Notes under the pieces: model-generated
The model's input: only the letters and a program-made list of their open reading frames with translations
What the model was told of the DNA's origin: nothing
Databases searched by the model: none
DNA from: a virus
Lineage: Duplodnaviria; Caudoviricetes
Direction: 5' to 3' (one strand)
DNA: 64,000 nt
Virus record (IMG/VR): IMGVR_UViG_3300030333_001969
Span: 1,761-65,760 of that record
Made by a program: the position numbers and the translations under genes
Part shown: positions 3,964 to 62,865 of the stretch, piece after piece
Layout of the letters: each line of letters begins with the position of its first letter
How positions within the stretch are numbered: the stretch's first letter is position 1

Positions 3964-6900
3964 AGTTTTATCTCCGTTGTTGTGACTGTATCTGTTCCTG
4001 AACCTATTGTTGATATATGTCCTATTGTAGTATTCCACCCCGATAATGTTCCACCCGGAGTTGATACTTGGTATTTAAGAGAAGTTTCCTTCAATAAGAC
4101 ATCTTCCATTTCATAATGAATCTTAATAGTTTCTCCTGCATTCTTAGTAAATAGGGTTCCAAAGCCAGTTTTTTGCTCCACCCCTAGTTCTGATAGTCTC
4201 TCAGCGATTGTCTTATTAAATGTTCCCACAGTTACAGTAGTTACATTAGACATTACATTATCAATCTCAAACACAGTAAACTCTTCATTTTTAATGTCAT
4301 GCGTTTCAAAGGTTAATGTTACCCTATCTCCGGGCTTCATCATTTCATAACCAGTTCTATCCATTTTAATTTGTATCTTTTTTGCTTTTTGTTTATGTGC
4401 AGTTAATGTCTTTTCTGCTTTAATTCTTGCTTCTGAAACGCTTGTAATATTTGGGTCAATTACTTTAACAGTTTTTGTTTTTCCTTTAGTAACAGGTATT
4501 TCTGCTTCAGCCTTAACACTATCTCCAATAACAACTACTCTTGTTGCTTTATCAAACATATTTTCATTCTTTTCTATTTCTAACACAGTTCCTGATTTAT
4601 ATGAAATGTCAAACTTTCTTTTACTATCATAATCATAGGCATCTTTAATTCTCATCTCTCCGGGAGAATTTTGAACAAACTGATATTCTAATCCTTTCTT
4701 ATTAGCCAAGAAATTTATTGCTCCGTAAACATCTTGTTCTGTAAATCTTGAATTTACTATTAATGGTTTTCTATTATAGACTGTTATTTCATCATTGGCT
4801 ACAGGTTTGTATGCAACATCAGCCCCTCCACTATCTAATTCTGCTAATGTTATTGTATTAGTAGAAGTAGATGCTACCTCACCTATAAACTTCCCATCTT
4901 GATTGTAAATATCATCACCAGCAGAAACATTAATTGCATTGTTTTCTAATGTTATTGTCGTTCCTGTAGTATTTTGAGAAACAATATTAGTAGTATATAC
5001 TAAGCCTTTTTCTGATGTATCTACATTAATATTGTTTTCTTCTAAAATGTCTTCCATTGCTTTTTCTGCATCTGTTCCGACATTAAATGTGGTTCCAATA
5101 TATGCTCTTTGAGCCTTTCTCATCTTTGGTTTAACGTGAGTAGTTATATTAAATACTTCACCAAAGGATACAATTCCTTTACCGTTTAACTCACCATCAT
5201 ATGTTATTCTTACATTGGTGGTACTTGATTCTATACTTAAGTCTTTAACTTCTCCTGTATCTCCGTCTGTAATATAAAACTCCCCACCTGTAAATGTATT
5301 ACTATTAAATGGTGGAGTGGCTCTAACGTGTGCAACGGTTCTTCTATCTGGTTTACCATCTATTATTGAATCTACATCTAATAATAAATACATAGCAAAT
5401 AAACCTTCTTCATATATTAAATCATCATTAGTTGCAGCAGAAGTAGTATATGTATCTGCACTACTGCCAAATCCAACCACGCTATCAGTTAGTTCTTCAT
5501 CACCAGTAATATAATTTTGAGTGAGATAATCATATTTTAATCCAGTATCAAACATCTTATTTAGGTCAAAGTAATCAGGAGTATCTTTAAATGTAGTTTC
5601 TGAAATCCTCATTAATCTGAATGTTTTACCATGATTAGCAGTATTTAATGTAGTATCTAATTTAATAGTATGAACTGCATAAGTGCTGCTATCTGTTACT
5701 CCATGATGTATTATTTTTCCAATATATACTGGTTCTCCCTTTAACCTATTAGTAGTAGTAGTTCCATCAAAAGCATCTTTATCTGGTAATGTTAAATTAG
5801 TTCCTACTAATTTGTCTGATACTAAATAATATCCTTTTAAGTTTGGCACATAGTCTATCCACGAATTAATACAATTTTCATCTAACGTTATTGAAAAACT
5901 AGTCGCGTTAAGTGTATCTGAATCAAAATCTATCTTTGGTTTAAATAATGCCTGTGCTTGGAATACATCTCCCTTCTTTTTAAGACCCCAATCGTTTTCT
6001 GTATGTTTCCAACTTCTAGAATCATAGTTAGAAGAATCGCTTCTAACACTATCTTCCCCTAAGAAATGTGAACGTGTCTTAGTTCCAAGATATGTCATTT
6101 CTTGTCCATCAGGAGGTTTTTGATTAATCCTTAAAACTCTACTATGTTGGTCTATCTCATCCCATGCACCACTAGTGCTAATATATGTTCCAAGACTATT
6201 AGACCATGTGTTTATGCAACCAGCATCAATATCAATTACTGCACTTGTTGGACGTGTAAATGCTTTATTTACGTCTTTTTGTTTAGTTACCTTTTTCATG
6301 TCTTTAAATAGTACGTTACAACTGGTGTATAAATGCGTATTGTTATGTGTTTTATACTGCGTTCCATCTGAGTTGCTACCAAAGGTTTGTCTTGTAATAG
6401 CATTTACTATCCTAGAAGGATGATAATATGTTTCGCTGCTATTGCCTGTCCAATCCTTTGCTTGATGGAATCCTGAGATTTGTCCTCTATTGTCATCCGC
6501 ATTATAGTTTGTTCCAGCAACCCCGTCTATACATTCACCAATTAAAGGTATCCATAAGTCATGTCCATTTAATTTATTAGTTGAAGAATTAACTCCTACC
6601 AATAAACGATGTCTAAGATAGTCTCGATAAACCATAGGAACTGACATATACATATTTGGCATATATAATCCATTATTACCCACCTCATCTAATCCCCATT
6701 TTCCTTCAGGTGGGGCTAAAGTATTGAATAATTTTGCTCTTACAATGTATATTGTATCTCCGTTTGCATCTGTTTCATCATCATAACTAAGCATCTTAAG
6801 GTCTTTAGTCGTATCTGTATTGTGAACAGTCAAAGAAGAATCATTTGTAATTGTTTTATGAGCAACCGCTAGTGCTGTACCATCTTTGCCTCTATAAATT

Positions 6901-28743: not shown

Positions 28744-31266
28744 TTACGCAACTTGCATGGTTAACTTTTTATGCCTGTCTTCAGTAATATCCCATATTCC
28801 TTCATCTTTGTCTTTATCTAACATCTTTTGTTTGATTCCTGTCCAAACAACCCATGTATCTTGTTCTTTAACAGGAACCACTCTAAAGTGTAATCTAGTT
28901 TCAAACTTATCCCCATTTATTTTATATTCGTGATAACCATGCCTTTGAACACCTAACTCAATTTCTCCAGAATCTAACAATTTATCTCTTGTTGTCTTTG
29001 TAGAAACTTGTGCAGGAAACTTACCAGACTTGCCAAACAGATTATAAATATCTTCAGCATCTTCAATATCAATTGTCCACGCCATTTCTTTATCGGGCGT
29101 TCTAATAATCATTTCTAAGTTATCATCACTACCATGATATAATAAGAACTTACCCTTCTTTGGAGTCTTTTCTGCTTTAATAAGTTTATCTTTATTTGCA
29201 GTATATTTATCTTTAGTTACCTTGATAAAATCATCATAATCATTCATCCAGTTAACCATTCTTTTGATGTCTCCTGTCCATAAATCTTCAACTAACTTAG
29301 GTATCTTCTCTTTACAGAAATTAAATATTTCATTTATATGTATTCCTTTTTCTTCTGTATCTATTTCTTGTAAGTATGCTTTAATTGCTACTCTAGCATC
29401 CCCAGACTTTGCCTTCATTAACTCTTCAATTTCATGCTTCCACATATCCATGTCGGCTAAAGCATTCTTTTCCATTAGAGAGTCTCCACTAAAACCATAA
29501 ACAGTAAAGCCTTCAAAGTCAGATTTCATTATAATATCTGCTTCACCGTGAACACCATCAGTTATTACAAACTTTGTTAATGCGTCTTCAACTTCATACT
29601 TTAATGATTTCCTGCCTTCTTTAGATAATAGGTCTAATGTAATTAGTTTCTCTGGTGCTTCTACTTCTGGTATTTCAATCACTTTAGCAGTATACAGTTT
29701 ATACCCACCATTGTTCTTTCTAACTTCATCAACCTTAACCCTTACAATATCTCCAACATCTACCTTTTCTTTAGTATTCAATGCTTTACCAACTGCTAGA
29801 TATTTAAGGCCATCTAATTCTGTTCCACCATGTTCTCTTGCTTCTTCTCCGCTAAGTGGCCCTGCTCCTAAAGTATAAGAATTAAGGTTAGACTTCGTAG
29901 ATTTCTTATCTAATACAATTAAATCTAAATCTACAAATTTCTTTAATTTAATCCACTTGGGGTTTTTCTTACTTCCTTTGTAGTAAGTAGATTCTATGTC
30001 TTTAATAACAACTCCTTCTGATGTTGGTAATTCCATAATATCTTTAGAATACTTTTCTATTTCTGCTAATGAATCTGCTATCCTAGTATTCTTTTTATTT
30101 GGGAAAGACAATTCATCAGAAGAATGCTGTGCTAACTGATAAAATAGAATATTTATTCTTTCTCTTAATGGGGTATCAGTTACATTCTTTCCTTCGTGAT
30201 GTAATATATCAAATACCCTAGCCTTTAACTTTGCTTCTGGATATTTTCCTTTGAATAGATGTGCAATAGTATCTGCACGATGTAATGGTTCGTCTTTATC
30301 ATATAATATTATTTCAGCATCAAAGATGCTATCACCAAACCTCTTTTGTTCTAGTTTATCAACAATGTCTTTACATTTGGAAGTAATATCTTTTTCATTA
30401 TATGAATAAATTTTAACCTTGTCTTTTATTTTATGTAGTTGAACTCTAATGCCATCATATTTTTCTTGAACTACCCATTCTCCACTAAATCCTTTTAAGT
30501 CTTTAATATCATTTACTTCAAATATTCTATACATGGGTTTGTTTGGAATTACAAAATCTGTTTCTTCTTTTTCTTTTTCAGACTTTTCTTTTTTCTTTTC
30601 TTTCTTTAATCTGATTGCTACTAACTCTTCCCAATCTTCTTCTGTATTGTCCACTAAGAAAACTTTCTTTAATAATTCCAATGCTGGCTTAAACTTAGGT
30701 TTAACCTTAGAAGTATCCTTATCATCTCCATAGTGTTCTATAATGTAAATAGGTATATCATCTAACCTAAGGTCTAACCCCATAGCCCCTTCAGAAATGT
30801 TGCCTATGTTTATACCATGTTTTTCCCAAGCAGCAGCAGATATACTGTGTGCGTGTGTGCGTAAAGCATAGTGTATGAACATAGCATATATAGAGGGTTC
30901 AGACACAAACGTTTCTATAACGTTGTCACCCAATTGTTTAGCAAAGGGGTCATTAACTTCTTCAGAATTATAACGCAATCTTTTAATCTGAGCATACAAT
31001 TCTCTTGCTTGACTAGATTCTGCATCAAGGGCATTCTTATCGAAAACAGTTTCTTCATCTAAATATCTTTTCATTTCATTAGTAAAACTACTAAGACCAT
31101 CAAAATCATCTCTTATCTTCTTAACAGACTTTCTCCATTCTTTACCGTATTCATCAGGGTCTTCTCTCGCAGATAGATATTTGTATCTTACATCTTCATA
31201 AAAGTCAAGGACACGCTTCGCCAGCCCTGTATTCTTTTTGCGAAAGAAGACCCCAGATTGTGGCAA
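28744..31266 (-). CDS. lig: ATP-dependent DNA ligase with N- and C-terminal extensions
   Basis: Motif I EKYDGIR, III FDAEI, IIIa VFDILH, IV EGVVIKD, V KWIKLK, followed by an OB-fold region. Confidence 0.9.
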   Translation of the reverse strand: MPQSGVFFRKKNTGLAKRVLDFYEDVRYKYLSAREDPDEYGKEWRKSVKKIRDDFDGLSSFTNEMKRYLDEETVFDKNALDAESSQARELYAQIKRLRYNSEEVNDPFAKQLGDNVIETFVSEPSIYAMFIHYALRTHAHSISAAAWEKHGINIGNISEGAMGLDLRLDDIPIYIIEHYGDDKDTSKVKPKFKPALELLKKVFLVDNTEEDWEELVAIRLKKEKKKEKSEKEKEETDFVIPNKPMYRIFEVNDIKDLKGFSGEWVVQEKYDGIRVQLHKIKDKVKIYSYNEKDITSKCKDIVDKLEQKRFGDSIFDAEIILYDKDEPLHRADTIAHLFKGKYPEAKLKARVFDILHHEGKNVTDTPLRERINILFYQLAQHSSDELSFPNKKNTRIADSLAEIEKYSKDIMELPTSEGVVIKDIESTYYKGSKKNPKWIKLKKFVDLDLIVLDKKSTKSNLNSYTLGAGPLSGEEAREHGGTELDGLKYLAVGKALNTKEKVDVGDIVRVKVDEVRKNNGGYKLYTAKVIEIPEVEAPEKLITLDLLSKEGRKSLKYEVEDALTKFVITDGVHGEADIIMKSDFEGFTVYGFSGDSLMEKNALADMDMWKHEIEELMKAKSGDARVAIKAYLQEIDTEEKGIHINEIFNFCKEKIPKLVEDLWTGDIKRMVNWMNDYDDFIKVTKDKYTANKDKLIKAEKTPKKGKFLLYHGSDDNLEMIIRTPDKEMAWTIDIEDAEDIYNLFGKSGKFPAQVSTKTTRDKLLDSGEIELGVQRHGYHEYKINGDKFETRLHFRVVPVKEQDTWVVWTGIKQKMLDKDKDEGIWDITEDRHKKLTMQVA

Positions 31267-56611: not shown

Positions 56612-57011
56612 AATATTCCTCCTTGTGTCGCCCGGTTTAACTTATTTAACCATTAAAACTGAAAATTTGGCCCGTCATTTATTTGCCACTTGCGATTTTT
56701 ATTTTAATGTTTTTATCCTATTCCCAGAATAAAAATAGTTTATTGTTTAAATTGAATGATAAAAAGGTATTAATCTCCTGTATCCCTTTACGCGACCCGC
56801 GATTTTTTAATAGTTAAATAATCACCTTTGAGTTTAGTGCGTTCACTCTATATGACCCATGTGCGCCTACTATTTAGATATATGACTTGACACAATTAAC
56901 ATTTTAAGCCTGTTTTAACTAAACAAATCATTAAAAGATTAAAGAAAAAAAATCGACCCAAAGCATATGGTCATGTAAAATACATAGACCCGTCAGGAAA
57001 TTCTTCCAACA

Positions 57012-57436
57012 ACGATAGTCGTATTCAGCGTTCAATGGAGCATAGTAGTGATAACACTTACTATTAGTCTATTTCTCTGAATACGTCATCGTATGTTTCC
57101 ATCCTTCCATATGGTAAGGTTATAGGACATATAGTATCTGTTAACTTGCAGGGACGGGTAGAAAACTGTCTGGTAAATAGGAACTATACATAAGTATAAG
57201 CCTAAGCGTGTTTCGTAGTTTTACCAGCGTTGTTTTCTACTTAGTGCCCTTGCAAGTTAACAGCACGGTGTCCATAAACCACCCGATTAATCTGGTATCC
57301 AACGTTTCACTTAAGTAAATGCTTTGTAGTTCGTTTGCATCTCCAATAACGACAAAAACAGGGGCACTTAGGTTCTCGCTTAGGCGACCCCTTAATATGC
57401 CGTTATTGTTTATCATCCTCACTAACAAGCATTTAC
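57012..57436. repeat. Three long imperfect hairpins of the CCTAAG family (leftmost degenerate)
   Basis: For example CTGTTAACTTGCA (57138-57150) / TGCAAGTTAACAG (57251-57263) enclosing GCCTAAGCG (57200); CACTTAGG at 57365. Confidence 0.8.
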
Positions 57437-57656
57437 ATTTACAACCATATGGTAGCCTGTGCTTTGCTAACAGAATGCCCGATAACGGGACTTACTTCAT
57501 TGTTACGATTTTACAGCAATTACCCATTCTTACTCGTAAATCGCCTAATTCCATTCCGCAGGTTTCACATATCTCTATCATCATTTTTACATCCATTAAA
57601 CCAGCACCAATAGAAAGAGGAATTGCAATCATCACATGATAAAGGGAGAGTATTTC

Positions 57657-57914
57657 TCATTCTCCCTCCTCCACAACATATAGACCAAGACTTATCATAT
57701 CATCAAGCCATTGGTCTTGTTCCTTCAATGGCATTTGATGATGTATTATATCACCAATAGATTGTATATAGTGTCTAAGAAGGTTACAATTCTTTTGCCC
57801 TTTCAACACTTCACAGAACTCTTGATGGGCGTGTAATAAATCCCAATCAATATCTCCTTCATCTTCAACTAATGGGGTTTCATACCCACATTCACAGAAA
57901 CCACTATGTTTCAT
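57657..57914 (-). CDS. Small Cys/His-containing protein
   Basis: CECG...HQEFC; third gene of a palindrome-bounded cassette. Confidence 0.6.
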   Translation of the reverse strand: MKHSGFCECGYETPLVEDEGDIDWDLLHAHQEFCEVLKGQKNCNLLRHYIQSIGDIIHHQMPLKEQDQWLDDMISLGLYVVEEGE

Positions 57915-58630
57915 TCTTCATCCCCCATAACAAGGGCAGTTGTTTCTGGTGAGCATTGGTAGGTTGCTTCACTAATTATCTTAGTCTCACAATCAACAGT
58001 ATGTGTTAATTCGCAAGCACTTAGTTCTGAAAGAACTGCTTCTACTGCCTCGCGTATTCTCATCATCTCAGCCAATGGCACTTGAACAACCTTTTCTTCT
58101 ACTGCCTTTCTATTTGAAATCTTATCAACTTCATAGATAATAGTAAAGATTAGCGAATAGGTGTATCCATAAGTTTCTAATTTAGCCGTCAAAAACACAT
58201 TATCATCATATTCAATCTTTGCTTTACCATACCAATCTTGTTCACCATTAATGTCACCATCGAATATACCAAGATGTGGCCCTTGAACTCTCATCCAAGT
58301 GTCCATTCTCTTTGTTGTTTCAATTGAACCTATTGTGCCATTAATACCGTAGTTCTTCAAACCCTCCAAAGCCAATTGTGCTTGACTATGGTAATCTAAC
58401 TCCATAACTACTTGACCGTGACTATCGGTTATTGCATAAGTAGTGGTTGTATCTTCCTTCTCTTGGAAACCATATTTACTAGGCTGGCTTTCTGGATTAG
58501 TATAGTTATAACTGCTCGTTTGGGCTATGCCTCTATTATACAGCATTCCTTGCACTTTTTGAGCATGGTTAGGAACATCGTCCATATCCGTGTCAAAGTA
58601 TATCTCCATCTTTCTCTCATATATCGTCAT
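57911..58630 (-). CDS. Hypothetical acidic protein (239 aa)
   Basis: AGGAG RBS; coupled to neighbours. Confidence 0.7.
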   Translation of the reverse strand: MTIYERKMEIYFDTDMDDVPNHAQKVQGMLYNRGIAQTSSYNYTNPESQPSKYGFQEKEDTTTTYAITDSHGQVVMELDYHSQAQLALEGLKNYGINGTIGSIETTKRMDTWMRVQGPHLGIFDGDINGEQDWYGKAKIEYDDNVFLTAKLETYGYTYSLIFTIIYEVDKISNRKAVEEKVVQVPLAEMMRIREAVEAVLSELSACELTHTVDCETKIISEATYQCSPETTALVMGDEE

Positions 58631-58825
58631 TTACTCATCTCCTATTGCTTCAACGTAATCGGACAATGCTGATTGCATATCAGCCATTACTTCCTTTAGG
58701 TTGTCTCCAGATACTCGTAATTTGCTAATACATAGAACAAGGGCAGACCCTGATTTCATATGTTTAACTTCTAACACGTATTTTGGCTCAGTTATTGGTA
58801 TTGTCTCATTATTCTCATTAATCAT
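58631..58825 (-). CDS. Small hypothetical protein (probable start MINENNE)
   Basis: Downstream of the TATA-like element at about 58852-58860. Confidence 0.55.
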   Translation of the reverse strand: MINENNETIPITEPKYVLEVKHMKSGSALVLCISKLRVSGDNLKEVMADMQSALSDYVEAIGDE

Positions 58826-58851
58826 GTGAATCATTCTTATCTTATTCTTAG

Positions 58852-58893
58852 AATATATCAGGTAAGTGTTAGCAAAGCACACTACCATATGGT
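58852..58893 (-). promoter_or_regulatory. Palindrome + CTTTG + TATA-like promoter
   Basis: Minus strand ACCATATGGT..GCTTTG...ACCTGATATATTC; same layout at 59551-59594 and 60008-60051 (minus) and 61536-61573 (plus). Confidence 0.6.
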
Positions 58894-58939
58894 TTGCTTT
58901 GCGTTAAACCGGAGAGGTGGAGAGGGGCGCAAAACCCAC

Positions 58940-59488
58940 CTATTCCTCTTCATCGCCTCCGATGAAGGATACCACAGGATAACCGTTCTCATCATAAGAA
59001 CCGTCCCAATGGTATTTCTTGGTCATATCTCCGTTTGCGTGTGCATTGTAAGCGGAATTGAGGAATAGTCTCTCTTTCTTCACGCCATCTGTTGCAAACA
59101 CGGTAGCGTCATCGTCTAGGGTGTTGTAAAGCACACCACCGGACTTTCCGTGTGTTCTAGCGGTTGCGTAAACACATGGATAAACGGTATCACGAAGTGC
59201 GGTAAAAAGTGTCTCATTCAAGTAAAGGTCGAATGAGGACTTGGTTGCGGTATCCATTAGAGACTTGCGCCCCTGTCCAATGGGCGAATTTGCCACATCG
59301 GTGAATACACCTACAATAGAGTTCCAATATCTCTTTCGGGTGCTTGGGTTAGCATCACCGAGAGCGAACATTGAACGCACAATCATTGCCAAATCGCTTT
59401 GGTCTGGATTAACTGCGAACCACTCTTCTAGGTCGGATTTCTTGGTTTCCCACTTGCTGTCATCTATTTCATTGCTCATCTTAATCAT
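58940..59488 (-). CDS. Hypothetical protein, paralog of 61641-62150
   Basis: Shares GD.N.STR, NSI, R.HGKS.G and WDGS with the plus-strand ORF at 61641. Confidence 0.75.
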   Translation of the reverse strand: MIKMSNEIDDSKWETKKSDLEEWFAVNPDQSDLAMIVRSMFALGDANPSTRKRYWNSIVGVFTDVANSPIGQGRKSLMDTATKSSFDLYLNETLFTALRDTVYPCVYATARTHGKSGGVLYNTLDDDATVFATDGVKKERLFLNSAYNAHANGDMTKKYHWDGSYDENGYPVVSFIGGDEEE

Positions 59489-59609
59489 CTCCGAAAAGGT
59501 AAGATAGGTTTGCGCCCCTAAAATTCCTCTCCGTTCTTATGATTCATTGTGAATATATGAGGTGTGTTTAACACAAAGTACCACACCATATGGTTTTACT
59601 TTGTGTAAA

Positions 59610-59995
59610 AAACCAGATAGGAGAGAATGCTTGGATTTACACTTAGGCTAATCTACCGTTATTCTAAGTCCAAGTCTCATATCTCTCCATTGGGGAGTGT
59701 GAGTGGGTTTTGTATTGTGCTTTCCTAAGGCACTCTCAGACCCGAAACTGAGCAAATGAAGGTGGATGCTGGACTCTCTTTCGATTACCAGCAAAGACGC
59801 ATGGGCGTTAGTTCTACATATCTTGAGTATACAGTCCTAACCCGCGCTTACTCATTCTTACCCCGCTAAGGGCGTTGTCCTGCCTTTCCTTTCTAAGAAC
59901 GACTCGGTGTCCCGCTAAGAACCAAGAATGATGCTTTACACCCTAACGATGGTGTTATTCAGCCAATCCGTGCCAACCGCGCCGTTGGCATTCTT
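59610..59995 (-). ncRNA. Candidate structured non-coding RNA (about 380 nt)
   Basis: Same promoter layout as neighbouring genes but no ORF of 60 aa or more; GC-richer; ends AGAATGC/GCATTCT are complementary; contains GCCTAAGTG; followed by a T-run. Confidence 0.4.
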
Positions 59996-60060
59996 ATGTT
60001 TAAGGGTGAATATATCAGGTGCAATTGACACAAAGTATCACACCATATGGTAAGTTATTA

Positions 60061-61296
60061 GGTCATAGTGGATTGTAAGGCGGGTTTCTCCCTGTGGTAG
60101 CCACTATCCAACAAAGAGGCTAATTCCTAAGAATAGAGCCTAAGCGTACTCAAAGTTGGTGTGGCAGCCACGGTGGAGAAACTCCGCCTTAGAAGCCTAC
60201 TGACCATAAACACTTATTCCCCATTTAATGGGGAGAAACATTACATTAACATGAAATAATACAGATTTCGGTTGCTTAATACGCTAAGGCCGATTCAGGG
60301 CCACTTAGGTTCGGCTATGGCCTTTCCCTGAATTTAGCCTTACCGTATTAACCGCCTCAACTGTATATATTTCATTATACTACCATATGGTTACTTAGTC
60401 TAGGAGTTAAGCATAACTCATGCAGCATAATAGGCTCCTAAGAGTCTAAGCCTAAGTGTTGATGCTGCTTGCGTTAGGCTTAACTCCAAGCAAGATAATC
60501 CCATATCGGGTTCTTTTGATTTGAGGTCTGTTTCAAACAGTTCAGATGCCAATCATAAACTTTTGCCAATGCAGTACCGCTTAGGCTGGGTCTTAAGACC
60601 CCCTTTAGGCTAGGAACGGATGTTCCTACCCGTCAAAAGATTATGTTAGCATCATCACAACTCACCAGACCTTTATTTTATAATTAGCAAACCATATGGT
60701 TGTTTAGGTGATGCTAGGTTTAGTGTCTTCCTGTAGTCACGGATTCAATTCAAAAAATTGAAGCCTAAGTGTATCTGTTACTGCGGGAGACACTAAACCA
60801 ATGCCACCATAATAACCAGATTTAGAATCCGGTTCAAACAATAAAGGAGTCTAACATAAAGGTTTGGCCTTTTCCAGATACAGCAAAATGACTCTTCGCT
60901 TAGGCTTCAAATTGAGATTTGTCCGTCATTTATCTGTATCCTCCTTGGCCTGCTAAACTTGCAATAGTTGTTTGCAAGTTAACAAACCATTAAGAAGACT
61001 CCTTTAACTTACCATATGGTTTGATAAAGTGGTCTGCGTTTAGACGCGAATAAAGGGTGCGTAATCTTTAGTTTTGTATTAAAACAAGAGTTCACCTAAG
61101 TGAAAATCTAAATGTCTCGCCAGTTTTAATTCATAACTAAAGAGTACGTCACGCTTTAGTTCGCGTCTAAACGCGTGACCCATATCATTCCCGATAAATA
61201 GGGTATATATTCCACAAGCGATTGCGAAGGAGATAAACCTATGAACACTTAGGCTCTTGTTATGACAAGCCCTATGTTCATCTCCTCCACTATCGC
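60061..61296. repeat. Eight long imperfect hairpins in alternating orientation with apical RCCTAAGYG motif
   Basis: Stems include 60403-60412/60478-60487, 60717-60728/60788-60799, 60842-60852/60996-61006 and 61036-61050/61160-61174. Motif at 60138+, 60302-, 60450+, 60578-, 60763+, 60897-, 61094+, 61246-. Confidence 0.85.
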
Positions 61297-61640
61297 AGTT
61301 CCATTATTACCATATGGTAGGGCATAAAATATTAATTGAAGCATTAATCGCTTCTGTTAAACGAAAAGTTTCGGAAGCCGTCCCTTGTGAATCGAAAAAG
61401 GGTTCACCCGTGACCCCTCCGGCATTTTTCTTATTTCTCGTTTTTCTAAAACGTGAGAATAACGTTAACCAACCTCGTAGAAAACGGCTTGTTTTTCCTT
61501 CTCGACTCTTCAGACCCCTGAAAAACGCTATCATTACCATATGGTTCTGCTTTGCACGGAACCTCTTATATATCCGATTACTCTCCCAAGAATGCCCCCG
61601 AAACTTGGGCACGAAAGAAAATACACATAGGTGATAAAAG

Positions 61641-62150
61641 ATGGAAGATATTGAGTGGGATTCAGTAAAGATAAAAGTAAGCACTATGCTTGAAGGTAAC
61701 GCAGAAGTTGGAGACATTCCAGAAGACGTTGTTACTCTTGCACAGATGCTAATAACGACAGGCGACAATAACGCTTCTACGCGTGATTCGCTGACTAACA
61801 GCATTAAGGATATGCTAAAGCCATACGCTGGTTATCCTTGGAAGAGAGGGAATCAGGGCATTCTACCTGCTGCGGCTCGCGCAGTTGTAGATTCTGCTAC
61901 TGATAACATCCGAGAGGCAGCAAGAGAGTTCTTTAACTCTACTTCGCAGTATTCTCAGCCCCTTCTCCGAAAGCACGGTAAGAGCAAGGGTTCCCCTGTT
62001 TACGCTGATGCTGACGAGTATGCAAACGAACTTGCTTCAAAGGCACGAAAGGCTGCAACACAACTGTTCAAGGACGGTGAGTGGGACGGCTCTCTATCGG
62101 GTCTTGCTGCTTGTGCGTCTTATGACGACATAACCACGGAGGATGAGTAA
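61641..62150 (+). CDS. Hypothetical protein, paralog of 58940-59488
   Basis: AGGTGA RBS, upstream TTATATAT box, shared motifs RKHGKSKG and WDGS. Confidence 0.8.
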   Translation: MEDIEWDSVKIKVSTMLEGNAEVGDIPEDVVTLAQMLITTGDNNASTRDSLTNSIKDMLKPYAGYPWKRGNQGILPAAARAVVDSATDNIREAAREFFNSTSQYSQPLLRKHGKSKGSPVYADADEYANELASKARKAATQLFKDGEWDGSLSGLAACASYDDITTEDE

Positions 62151-62190
62151 TTCTTCCTTCGTTAACCTAAGTTTCGGGGTGCAATCTACC

Positions 62191-62246
62191 GAGGGGGAAT
62201 AGGGTCTTTAATGGCCTTATTCCCTCTCAACTTTCTTCAGGTTTTT
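62191..62246 (+). terminator. Hairpin plus T-rich tract after the 61641 gene
   Basis: GAGGGGGAATAGGG...CCTTATTCCCTCTC followed by T-rich sequence. Confidence 0.5.
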
Positions 62247-62479
62247 GCTGGAAGCAAAGCCCAGTTAAAACCATATGGTAGTGTTTGGCTTCTTAACGGA
62301 AGGGGGCCGCGAGGGGTTCCGCACCGTTTATATATTCTCACGGAAGGGTATGAGTGCTTTCGACATTGGCAATTTATTGACGCAGAAAGAACGTAATCCG
62401 ACTAATGCAGTATATCAATAGTCTGATATTTATGGTGTAATAAATTACCGCCGTTAACAGGCACATGAATTAATAGTTA

Positions 62480-62865
62480 GAGATGCTTGCTTATATGATA
62501 TTCATATGCATTATGTATATACATATCTATATGCCATATCCTATATGATATGATAAGGCTCCCAATTTCTACAACTCAGCCCCACAAAAGTGGGCATGAT
62601 ATGTCATCTTTCTATCTTTCTAATAGGGGTAGAATAATGAAGTGGGCATGATGTGTAAGGAAATGGGTGATAAGTAGATATATAATATATTATTATATTA
62701 TTATTATTATTATACTCTCTTACTACTCCTTCCTTCCTTCCTTCCTTCTTGGCAGGGGGGTGGAAAAATGAGAAAAATAGAAAGATGCTAGAAGTAGACA
62801 TATTATGTTATCTTTATGGGAATTTGTGATAATATTATATTTCTATCGAAAGTAGAAAGATGGGA
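62480..62865. other. AT-rich, repeat-rich intergenic region; candidate replication origin
   Basis: (TAT)n tract at about 62685-62713, (TTCC)n at about 62727-62748, AAGTGGGCATGAT twice, several TAGAAAGA/AAGTAGA copies in both orientations. Confidence 0.35.

Follow-up and report, generated by a model that had tools for sequence, protein, structure and literature searches.

Complementary transcript ends kept by compensatory change in a gene family of marine viruses

Base pairing between the 5′ and the 3′ untranslated regions (UTRs) of a messenger RNA (mRNA) is as such already known; the conserved end-to-end form that we describe here, in a viral gene family, is new. The family is represented by two paralogous genes, one on each strand (58940-59488, minus; 61641-62150, plus), in a window of 64,000 nucleotides (nt) out of the 65,760 nt of virus record IMGVR_UViG_3300030333_001969 (Duplodnaviria; Caudoviricetes). 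In Bacillus subtilis hbs, a 14-nt interaction between the 5′ and 3′ UTRs protects against RNase Y, and 5′/3′-UTR pairing is also described in Staphylococcus aureus icaR and RNAIII/hld, the icaR pairing masking the ribosome binding site and leading to RNase III cleavage (PMC7821165). Like the present case, these have a short 5′ UTR–3′ UTR helix within one mRNA, which in hbs guards against a ribonuclease; as presented in that source, they are single host genes, with 3′ UTRs reported as not conserved among related species (PMC7821165). Here, by contrast, the helix is placed at the extreme ends, the Shine–Dalgarno (SD) sequence is free, and the pairing is a trait of a viral gene family, in which compensatory change has preserved it across dozens of diverged viruses.

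Orthomyxo-, bunya- and flavivirus genomes have terminal panhandles or cyclisation sequences, and plant virus mRNAs have 3′–5′ kissing loops. In these RNAs too, complementary 5′ and 3′ termini close a viral RNA, and the kissing-loop variant is possible in our case; the panhandles, however, are those of genomic RNAs, whose helices act as polymerase promoters or in factor delivery, whereas here the mRNAs of a double-stranded DNA head-tail virus are concerned. In archaea, bulge-helix-bulge stems (ribosomal RNA (rRNA) precursors, introns) lead to circular intermediates. These are likewise long-range helices of sequences flanking a functional RNA, but none of the duplexes predicted here holds the motif and no circular junction was seen in RNA contigs.

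Haloarchaeal translation control offers an archaeal parallel, in which the 5′ and 3′ UTRs functionally interact and are needed jointly, which was interpreted as a way of closing transcripts that preceded caps and poly(A) tails (Brenneis and Soppa 2009, PMC2636863). The abstract of that study presents host genes and growth-phase control without UTR–UTR base pairing; here, direct complementarity is the finding and function is what we infer from it. In crenarchaeal viruses, a conserved sequence around a strong BRE/TATA promoter precedes early and anti-defence genes (PMC11065993). As in our window, a repeated promoter module thus stands before small single genes of unknown function clustered in one genome region, but the accessible text of that article has 0 occurrences of 'UTR', and palindrome and end pairing are not part of the system it describes. 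In a literature search from which subscription journals were largely absent, no account of archaeal or archaeal-virus mRNAs with conserved terminal pairing came up. To our knowledge, the stabilisation of archaeal mRNAs and the organisation of their translation are very poorly known, and in the case of viruses of uncultured marine archaea nothing is known. The family offers a clear case: a predicted end-to-end mRNA helix, kept across diverged viruses, with transcripts in ocean metatranscriptomes.

Complementary ends of the two paralogs

A sequence-only reading of the window had proposed that the untranslated ends of both paralogs are complementary, and all four arm pairs are present where it placed them. 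In the minus gene, the outer pair consists of CGGAGAGG (58910-58917), the reverse complement of CCTCTCCG (59526-59533), and the inner pair of AGGGGCGCAAA (58923-58933), the reverse complement of TTTGCGCCCCT (59509-59519). The arms of the plus gene, CCCCGAAACTTGGG (61596-61609) and CCTAAGTTTCGGGG (62166-62179), are complementary with one G-U, as claimed, and the stem extends both outward (UGC 61593-61595 with GCA 62181-62183, a bulged U between) and inward (ACGAA 61611-61615 with UUCGU 62158-62162). The features of the two transcription units are as follows, with folds given as those of minimum free energy (MFE) unless stated.

61593-61615, plus strand: 5′ arm of the plus gene, made of UGC, CCCCGAAACUUGGG and ACGAA; alternative local hairpin GCCC...GGGC
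61641-62150, plus strand: coding sequence of the plus paralog, 169 amino acids (aa), with an SD-like GGTGAT at 61630-61635
62138-62157, plus strand: stop-codon hairpin in the MFE folds, GGAGGA (last codons) with UCUUCC (3′ UTR start), UAA in the loop
62158-62183, plus strand: 3′ arm of the plus gene, made of UUCGU, CCUAAGUUUCGGGG, a bulged U and GCA
62191-62228, plus strand: terminator-like hairpin of 16 pairs, then a T-rich stretch with TTTTT at about 62244-62248
59526-59533, minus strand: outer 5′ arm of the minus gene, CGGAGAGG, which both the MFE and the centroid fold of 58910-59533 show as paired
59502-59519, minus strand: inner 5′ arm of the minus gene, AGGGGCGCAAACCUAUCU, with its core at 59509-59519
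58940-59488, minus strand: coding sequence of the minus paralog, 182 aa as listed
58923-58946, minus strand: inner 3′ arm of the minus gene, core UUUGCGCCCCU at 58923-58933; the helix covers the stop codon (58940-58942)
58910-58917, minus strand: outer 3′ arm of the minus gene, CCUCUCCG, then GGTTTAAC and the palindrome at 58884-58893

Dinucleotide shuffling of the 90-nt flanks (500 shuffles per gene) showed that this degree of pairing is rarely reached by chance: the minus gene flanks (-53.8 kcal/mol, z -6.3) were equalled by 0/500 shuffles and the plus gene flanks (-53.3 kcal/mol, z -4.4) by 2/500. Comparison of upstream (-70..-8) with downstream (+1..+45) regions for 61 non-overlapping open reading frames (ORFs) of at least 70 aa in the window gave -45.0 and -42.5 kcal/mol for the paralogs and -21.5 for the next best (mean -12.9, sd 6.9). 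Perfect complements extended to 11 nt in each of the two paralogs, and none of the other 59 ORFs exceeded 9 nt.

Scans of viral and metagenome contigs resulted in 115 related loci, which contain 673 distinct ORFs of at least 50 aa. Flank pairing at or below a cut-off of -28 kcal/mol was found for 74 of these, including 35 of the plus family and 17 of the minus family; eight others are located on one unrelated GC-rich contig (L108), and the rest are mostly overlapping or antisense frames. With 52 of the 74 strongly paired ORFs in the two families, the helix therefore travels with the gene family.

For the plus family, 74 loci with a match from residue 1 and room for flanks were entered, leaving out second copies per contig, partial or contig-end matches, and the distant L024-L029 and L105-L108; two were lost for want of a stop codon or because of a short flank, and the 72 usable loci yielded 49 distinct flank pairs. 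Cognate duplexes had a mean of -33.7 kcal/mol (n=49), compared with -23.1 kcal/mol (n=2100) for non-cognate pairs from loci with less than 75% protein identity (Mann-Whitney p 1.4e-24), and 26/49 loci had no equally good distant non-cognate partner. The minus family, 17 copies reduced to 15 loci by removal of 2 near-duplicates, behaved likewise (cognate -34.7 vs. non-cognate -22.2 kcal/mol), with a longest perfect run of 9-14 nt in cognate pairs vs. a mean of 6.2. By our own count there are about 19 distinct core arm sequences in the plus family (for example, by lineage, CCCCGAAACTTGGG, TGCCCCAAAC, TGTCGCTGACC, GCCTCAGAC and CCGAACAGGGC) and about 13 in the minus family (AGGGGCGCAAA, AATAGGGGGTA, GGTGGCGACTAAACC, GATTCGCCCC and GGTGGGCAATCA), each with its own matching partner.

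Pair counts on a raw MAFFT alignment of the 49 whole transcripts (single-register 10-pair helix, 500 shuffles) showed 63.1% of cells paired vs. 57.8% in shuffles (0/500 as high) and 37 cells altered on both sides vs. 16.6 (0/500), with double changes in 7/10 pairs; the unslid register was best for both percent paired and covariation score. Many rows of this alignment are out of register, so these figures understate the pairing. The complementarity thus exists, is specific to the gene family, and is kept by compensatory change in many diverged viruses (49 distinct loci of the plus family and 15 of the minus family), the kind of change that the sequence-only reading had proposed to look for in homologous loci.

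Whole-transcript MFE folds predict the long-range stem in 19 of 20 full-length relatives taken from the 49, L085 being the exception. For both window transcripts, the helix is predicted in the MFE and centroid folds (z -6.95 and -4.73), and SD GGTGAT is unpaired in the MFE of the plus transcript. The first ~20 nt of the leaders can alternatively form a local hairpin of 4-6 pairs, such as UUGCC...GGCAA, AAGCC...GGCUU, GGUGG...CCACC or GUGUG...CACAC, in 34/38 distinct plus leaders and 16/17 minus leaders. The 3′ arm complements the 5′ half and the loop of this local hairpin; kissing hairpins could thus replace the duplex or precede it, with the extended duplex preferred by the energy model. Inspection for bulge-helix-bulge motifs (two 3-nt bulges on opposite strands with a 4-bp helix between), a check that the sequence-only reading had suggested, found 0/66 MFE duplexes with the motif, also at relaxed sizes.

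The stop-codon hairpin arrangement recurs in the alignment of relatives: the 3′ UTR opens with pyrimidine-rich sequence, to which the acidic-tail codons (GAG/GAA) pair, and the stop codon lies in the loop. In L014 the stem has 11 bp without a mismatch. Both the RNA and the protein may accordingly constrain the tail sequence.

Transcript borders, RNA contigs and source virus

Both genes are preceded by a promoter module of conserved order: the palindrome ACCATATGGT, a CTTTG box, and CC(C)TTATA(T/A).

61536-61545, no strand: palindrome ACCATATGGT, upstream element of the plus promoter, also found upstream of the TATA box in related loci
61566-61573, plus strand: TATA box TTATATAT of the plus gene; relatives keep CC(C)TTATA(T/A)
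59585-59594, no strand: palindrome ACCATATGGT upstream of the minus promoter, inside the longer palindrome ACACAAAGT...ACTTTGTGT
59551-59559, minus strand: TATA box CATATATTC (minus-strand reading) of the minus gene, recognised from the sequence and from repeats D3, D5 and D13

An inverted repeat, GGTTC-N11-GAACC, spans 61543-61563 with the CTTTG box in its loop, and likewise in relatives. A search for sigma-70-type sites found 7 vs. 8.5 expected, none of them before either paralog.

The 5′ arms start about where an archaeal-type TATA box predicts the transcription start, in agreement with the sequence-only reading. Counted from the first T of the TATA box, the first paired base of the core helix is found at 27 nt in 15/49 plus loci (the mode) and at 25-35 nt in 37/49; for the other 12, the automatic longest-run choice hit another helix. 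In the minus family, the distance to the first pair is 27-31 nt in 12/17 loci. An archaeal promoter is expected to start transcription at such a distance from its TATA box, and RNA contigs begin 29-38 nt past the end of the TATA-like box. Co-variation has the same borders. The inner parts (UGCC anchor to GGCA) differ strongly between cognate and non-cognate pairs (-23.4 vs. -12.2, p 2e-28), whereas the outside flanks (20 nt upstream of the anchor, 22 nt past the 3′ arm) show no co-variation (-8.0 vs. -7.5, p 0.06). The borders of the pairing thus coincide with the predicted transcription start and with the end of the 3′ arm.

Complementarity further out, upstream of the start, is apparent in some local alignments but fails the co-variation test and was rejected. 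The minus outer 5′ arm may be located at or slightly upstream of the transcription start, and relatives have, at the position of the minus outer 3′ arm, a mini-hairpin of the CCTTCGGGG type and a T run. A hairpin analogous to the terminator-like one at 62191-62228 follows the 3′ arm in relatives.

RNA contigs came from four (X1, X2, X4 and X7) of eight marine metatranscriptome runs with parts of the region; being assembled, they give a weak hint on transcript ends. Two contigs from two studies, both free of loose ends, cover the plus gene at 61602-62179 (X2) and 61604-62178 (X4) and end at the last base, or one before it, of the listed 3′ arm (62166-62179). Other contigs on this gene span ~61608-62118 (X7), 61611-61758 and 61729-62137 (both X1). 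The minus gene is covered by contigs at 58955-59524 (X2), 58925-59352 and 59351-59524 (X4), 59009-59489 (X1) and 59199-59508 (X7); the inner arms are under RNA contigs, X4 reaching 58925 and X2 reaching 58955. Both plus-gene arms therefore lie, apart from 5′ bases specified below, inside single RNA contigs of two studies, and pairing is kept by compensatory change; the complementarity is thus neither lost in homologues nor, as far as contigs can show, left outside the transcripts, the two outcomes that the sequence-only reading had named as speaking against it. The circular junction reads that it had proposed to look for did not appear: a 3′ arm–5′ arm joint is absent from the contigs of all four runs, which as contigs cannot exclude one.

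The X1 contig 61611-61758 (depth 255) is unusual in that it opens with 26 letters of 61729-61754 and continues at 61611. Since ACGA follows both places, this amounts to a back-joint from 61758 to 61615 with 4-nt microhomology, a cycle in the assembly graph that might reflect an artefact of template switching, a variant with a duplication or a small circular product.

The long minus-strand gene runs of the window encode a major capsid protein, prohead protease, portal, large terminase and a protein with an ATP-dependent ligase domain. Searches of a phage collection matched the portal to archaeal viruses in 10/10 records (best match Halovirus HCTV-5, 30% identity, E 3e-61; the set includes a Methanomassiliicoccales virus) and the capsid protein to haloarchaeal tailed viruses in 8/8 (E down to 2e-12). 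All related contigs and all RNA runs are of marine origin. The source is probably a head-tail virus of an uncultured marine archaeon. Similar DNA to 57000-62600 was not found in the phage collection.

Readings of the terminal pairing

We consider it reasonably probable that a terminal panhandle (or kissing hairpins) closes the mRNA of both paralogs. Each paralog would form a monocistronic unit transcribed from an archaeal-type promoter (ACCATATGGT palindrome, CTTTG box and TATA box), with 15-25 nt at the start of its mRNA complementary to the closing 15-25 nt of a short 3′ UTR; given this end complementarity, the transcript would close via a terminal long-range helix of ~17-24 bp, bringing the start and stop codons near the same terminal helix. 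The 5′ end may fold first as a small local hairpin and, once the 3′ arm is made, the complementary loops may kiss and then extend into the duplex. By analogy with known RNA decay and translation, the closed ends could shield the 5′ triphosphate and 3′ hydroxyl from 5′-3′ and 3′-5′ exonucleases, the helix could halt 3′ trimming, and terminating ribosomes would have to open the inner helix and so be released beside the 5′ leader.

A stronger version, in which the mRNAs are non-covalently circular and an RNA-only closed loop sets the mature 3′ end and couples termination to re-initiation, is doubtful. It builds on the stop codon lying in or next to the helix, because of which each terminating ribosome would open the helix beside the leader. 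If true, the closed loop would be the base-paired counterpart of the eukaryotic cap/poly(A) loop, evolved by marine archaeal viruses for one highly transcribed gene family. Should the helix protect the ends or recycle ribosomes, a transcript would be closed without cap, tail or bridging protein. The arrangement also provides a sequence signature for finding more such genes: a TATA box, then a 5′ arm matching the 3′ UTR.

Several observations weigh against closure of the mRNA by a terminal helix. A strand test did not favour the sense strand (-27.6 vs. -27.9 kcal/mol for antisense, p 0.44), nor did the G-U pairs (78/1318 sense vs. 116/1393 antisense; 57 G-U vs. 68 A-C in local alignments); this test is weak because the stems are mostly Watson-Crick, but it leaves room for selection on the DNA. 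On the MAFFT alignment just 63% of cells pair, the double-change pair count was matched by 105/500 shuffles and the number of further pair types by 442/500, and RNAalifold found no consensus structure on the 5′ leaders, whose alignments are poor and out of register. Local 5′ hairpins (34/38 plus leaders) compete with the long-range helix. The RNA evidence consists of assembled contigs, which are unable to show true ends: the plus contigs begin 6-8 nt into 61596-61609, which is 9-11 nt into the arm counted from 61593, those of X1 stop at 62137, and neither minus outer arm (58910-58917, 59526-59533) is under any RNA contig. An X7 contig (59480-59682, 13 differences, depth 2.8) spans the minus promoter and could be read-through or DNA. 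The terminator-like hairpin and T run lie ~10-70 nt past the plus 3′ arm, beyond the ends of the RNA contigs; the end at 62179 would therefore need processing or trimming through the hairpin, or is an assembly break. Finally, the archaeal host domain is no more than probable, since the terminase matches are mostly bacterial phages (Bacteroides phages top, E 2e-37, plus Halogranum virus HGTV-1) and the manA-like RNA next to the minus gene (described below) belongs to a motif known from cyanophages and gamma-proteobacteria.

Some of these points would suit a processing stem, in which a double-strand- or junction-specific endonuclease cuts longer transcripts at the base of the helix and so defines the mature ends. 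rRNA precursors are cut at the base of such a helix. The base of the plus helix (62178/62179) is exactly where RNA contigs stop, despite the terminator-like hairpin and T run downstream, one contig crosses the minus promoter, and the units sit in a dense array of promoters and palindromes. We nonetheless judge this reading unlikely: the 5′ border of co-variation is the TATA-predicted start, so that no 5′ cut would be necessary, bulge-helix-bulge motifs are absent from the 66 duplexes, and the supposed precursor parts of the plus gene are under no RNA contig, a weak argument as it comes from contigs. The absence of strand asymmetry would equally fit inverted repeats that act in the DNA, as cassette borders for recombination, inversion or replication (cruciform or single-stranded DNA hairpin), with RNA pairing as a by-product; the region is moreover a mosaic of palindrome-bounded cassettes shuffled between relatives, and the paralogs are divergent in the window and tandem in L019, L073, L078 and L095. 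However, the shuffled cassettes are bounded by the palindromes and not by the arms, which lie within the transcription unit, where recombination between them would separate the gene from its promoter. The arms also differ by lineage and paralog, so there is no conserved protein site, co-variation ends at the predicted transcript borders, and direct repeats beside the arms were not seen by eye, all of which makes a role in the DNA quite improbable. A mobile cassette resembling a miniature inverted-repeat transposable element was rejected, as no one terminal-repeat sequence is shared across paralogs and relatives and no flanking direct repeats were seen by eye.

Two further readings accept the pairing in RNA and assign it another role. 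Control of the icaR type, in which 3′ UTR–5′ UTR pairing shuts down or tunes initiation and perhaps triggers cleavage instead of stabilising the mRNA, would draw on the pyrimidine-rich, UCUUCCUCC-like start of the 3′ UTR, which resembles an anti-SD and can pair with purine-rich leader tracts, and on the minus-gene helix that covers the stop codon. Yet the co-varying core is at the extreme 5′ end, more than 10 nt upstream of SD GGTGAT (61630-61635), which is free in the MFE, and the predicted folds pair the pyrimidine tract locally with the acidic-tail codons; we give such control a low probability. Covalent circularisation, with the helix juxtaposing the ends for an RNA ligase that yields circular mRNAs, is very improbable. 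The ends are indeed adjacent in a near-blunt helix, and one of the viral proteins (840 aa) combines an ATP-dependent ligase domain with a sub-threshold RNA-ligase match, but no run's contigs contain the 3′ arm–5′ arm joint, two runs agree in the linear ends of their contigs, which a circle would not produce, and the odd X1 contig joins 61758 to 61615, which are not transcript ends. The 840-aa protein is encoded at 28744-31266 on the minus strand; its ATP-dependent DNA ligase domain is matched at E 9.6e-30, and its RNA-ligase match reaches 26.0 bits vs. a cut-off of 27.

The proteins and the neighbouring cassettes

The plus paralog protein is all-alpha with an acidic tail and belongs to no known family. 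The two paralog proteins are distant (BLASTP, 23% identity, E 4e-7) and have in common invariant W, G-D, HGK and WDG positions. In protein searches the plus protein had 44 relatives and the minus protein 8, none with Pfam domains. Neither paralog nor their neighbours matched Pfam or PHROGs, a PDB profile search gave a best E of 0.02, which is not meaningful, and a search of the ESM Atlas gave no usable match. A structure model of the paralog protein (predicted local distance difference test score, pLDDT, 78) has helices throughout; it showed no fold match in PDB or BFVD at E <=0.001, and two BFVD entries (E 0.007 and 0.02) may be relatives. One scan of cellular genome contigs (query A1) found no relative. 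The minus paralog probably begins in reality with its second ATG (59479), with GGAGATGAT upstream, as in relative L109, because the listed start at 59488 leaves no room for an SD. On another locus, L029, a 179-aa ORF (minus strand, 5530-6069; MKKNNWISNANKV...LGDNAA) carries perfect 12-bp arms (CAAGGGGCTAAC / GTTAGCCCCTTG); BLASTP gave no match to either paralog at E 1e-3, and this ORF, one of the 74 with strong flank pairing, looks like a further divergent member of the gene family. Downstream of the palindrome at 58884, a gene with ATGs at 58834 and 58826 (58826-58862) is probably leaderless, since these ATGs are few bases from the TATA-predicted start.

The palindrome ACCATATGGT is present in 10 exact copies in the window, all within 57444-62279 (4.8 kb), vs. 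0.05 expected, and its 8-base core CCATATGG in 759 copies in 461,635 bases of related loci. Often part of a longer palindrome, GCAAAGC...GCTTTGC, it follows each terminator region and stands ~21-24 nt before the TATA box of three promoters and 43 nt before it in the case of the copy at 62270-62279. A dimeric regulator probably has its site here, and the palindrome is probably also where cassettes break when they are exchanged. In L019, L073, L078 and L095, a minus-family gene and a plus-family gene share one orientation, the former ~300 nt upstream of the latter; the two paralogs of the window diverge and are 2.1 kb apart, with a hairpin array between them. Whole cassettes, including the promoter, have therefore been inverted or moved.

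The array (57116-57443 and 59595-61308) consists of units of ~300-450 nt between palindromes, most of them with two long hairpins (stems to ~55 bp) that carry RCCTAAGYG in their loops. This motif has 13 copies in the window vs. 1.06 expected, 12 of them in the array, and is rare in more distant relatives; its orientation alternates, and its reading direction is therefore outward from each palindrome. Within the plus 3′ arm, the CCTAAG to which the sequence-only reading had drawn attention resembles it, but relatives do not keep CCTAAG in their arm, and we therefore take it as lineage-specific or a coincidence. The sequence-only reading had suggested that the gene cassettes may be the hairpin unit with an ORF in its loop; the noncoding hairpins between them abut ACCATATGGT palindromes without a promoter, and the array units contain no ORFs and have no Rfam match. 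RNA contigs cover neither 60112-61560 nor the noncoding hairpins, which is no evidence either way. The nearest relatives, with flanks 82-89% identical, have different or moved array units.

Across the whole window, Rfam at the gathering threshold gave no match and a tRNA scan found none. A manA-like RNA was nevertheless recognised at 59759-59990 on the minus strand, covering model positions 1-192 of 192 of Rfam RF01745 (46.9 bits, E 6e-10); we name it manA-like and not a member because 46.9 bits is under the gathering score of 55.2. The manA motif is known from marine metagenomes, T4-like cyanophages and two gamma-proteobacteria (PMC2864571). Located directly upstream of the minus paralog and in the same orientation, the manA-like RNA is served by a palindrome and TATA promoter of its own, which over 61 nt repeats the minus promoter at 84% (repeat D3). 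Its match begins where transcription is predicted to start, and three runs have RNA contigs over it (59703-59977).

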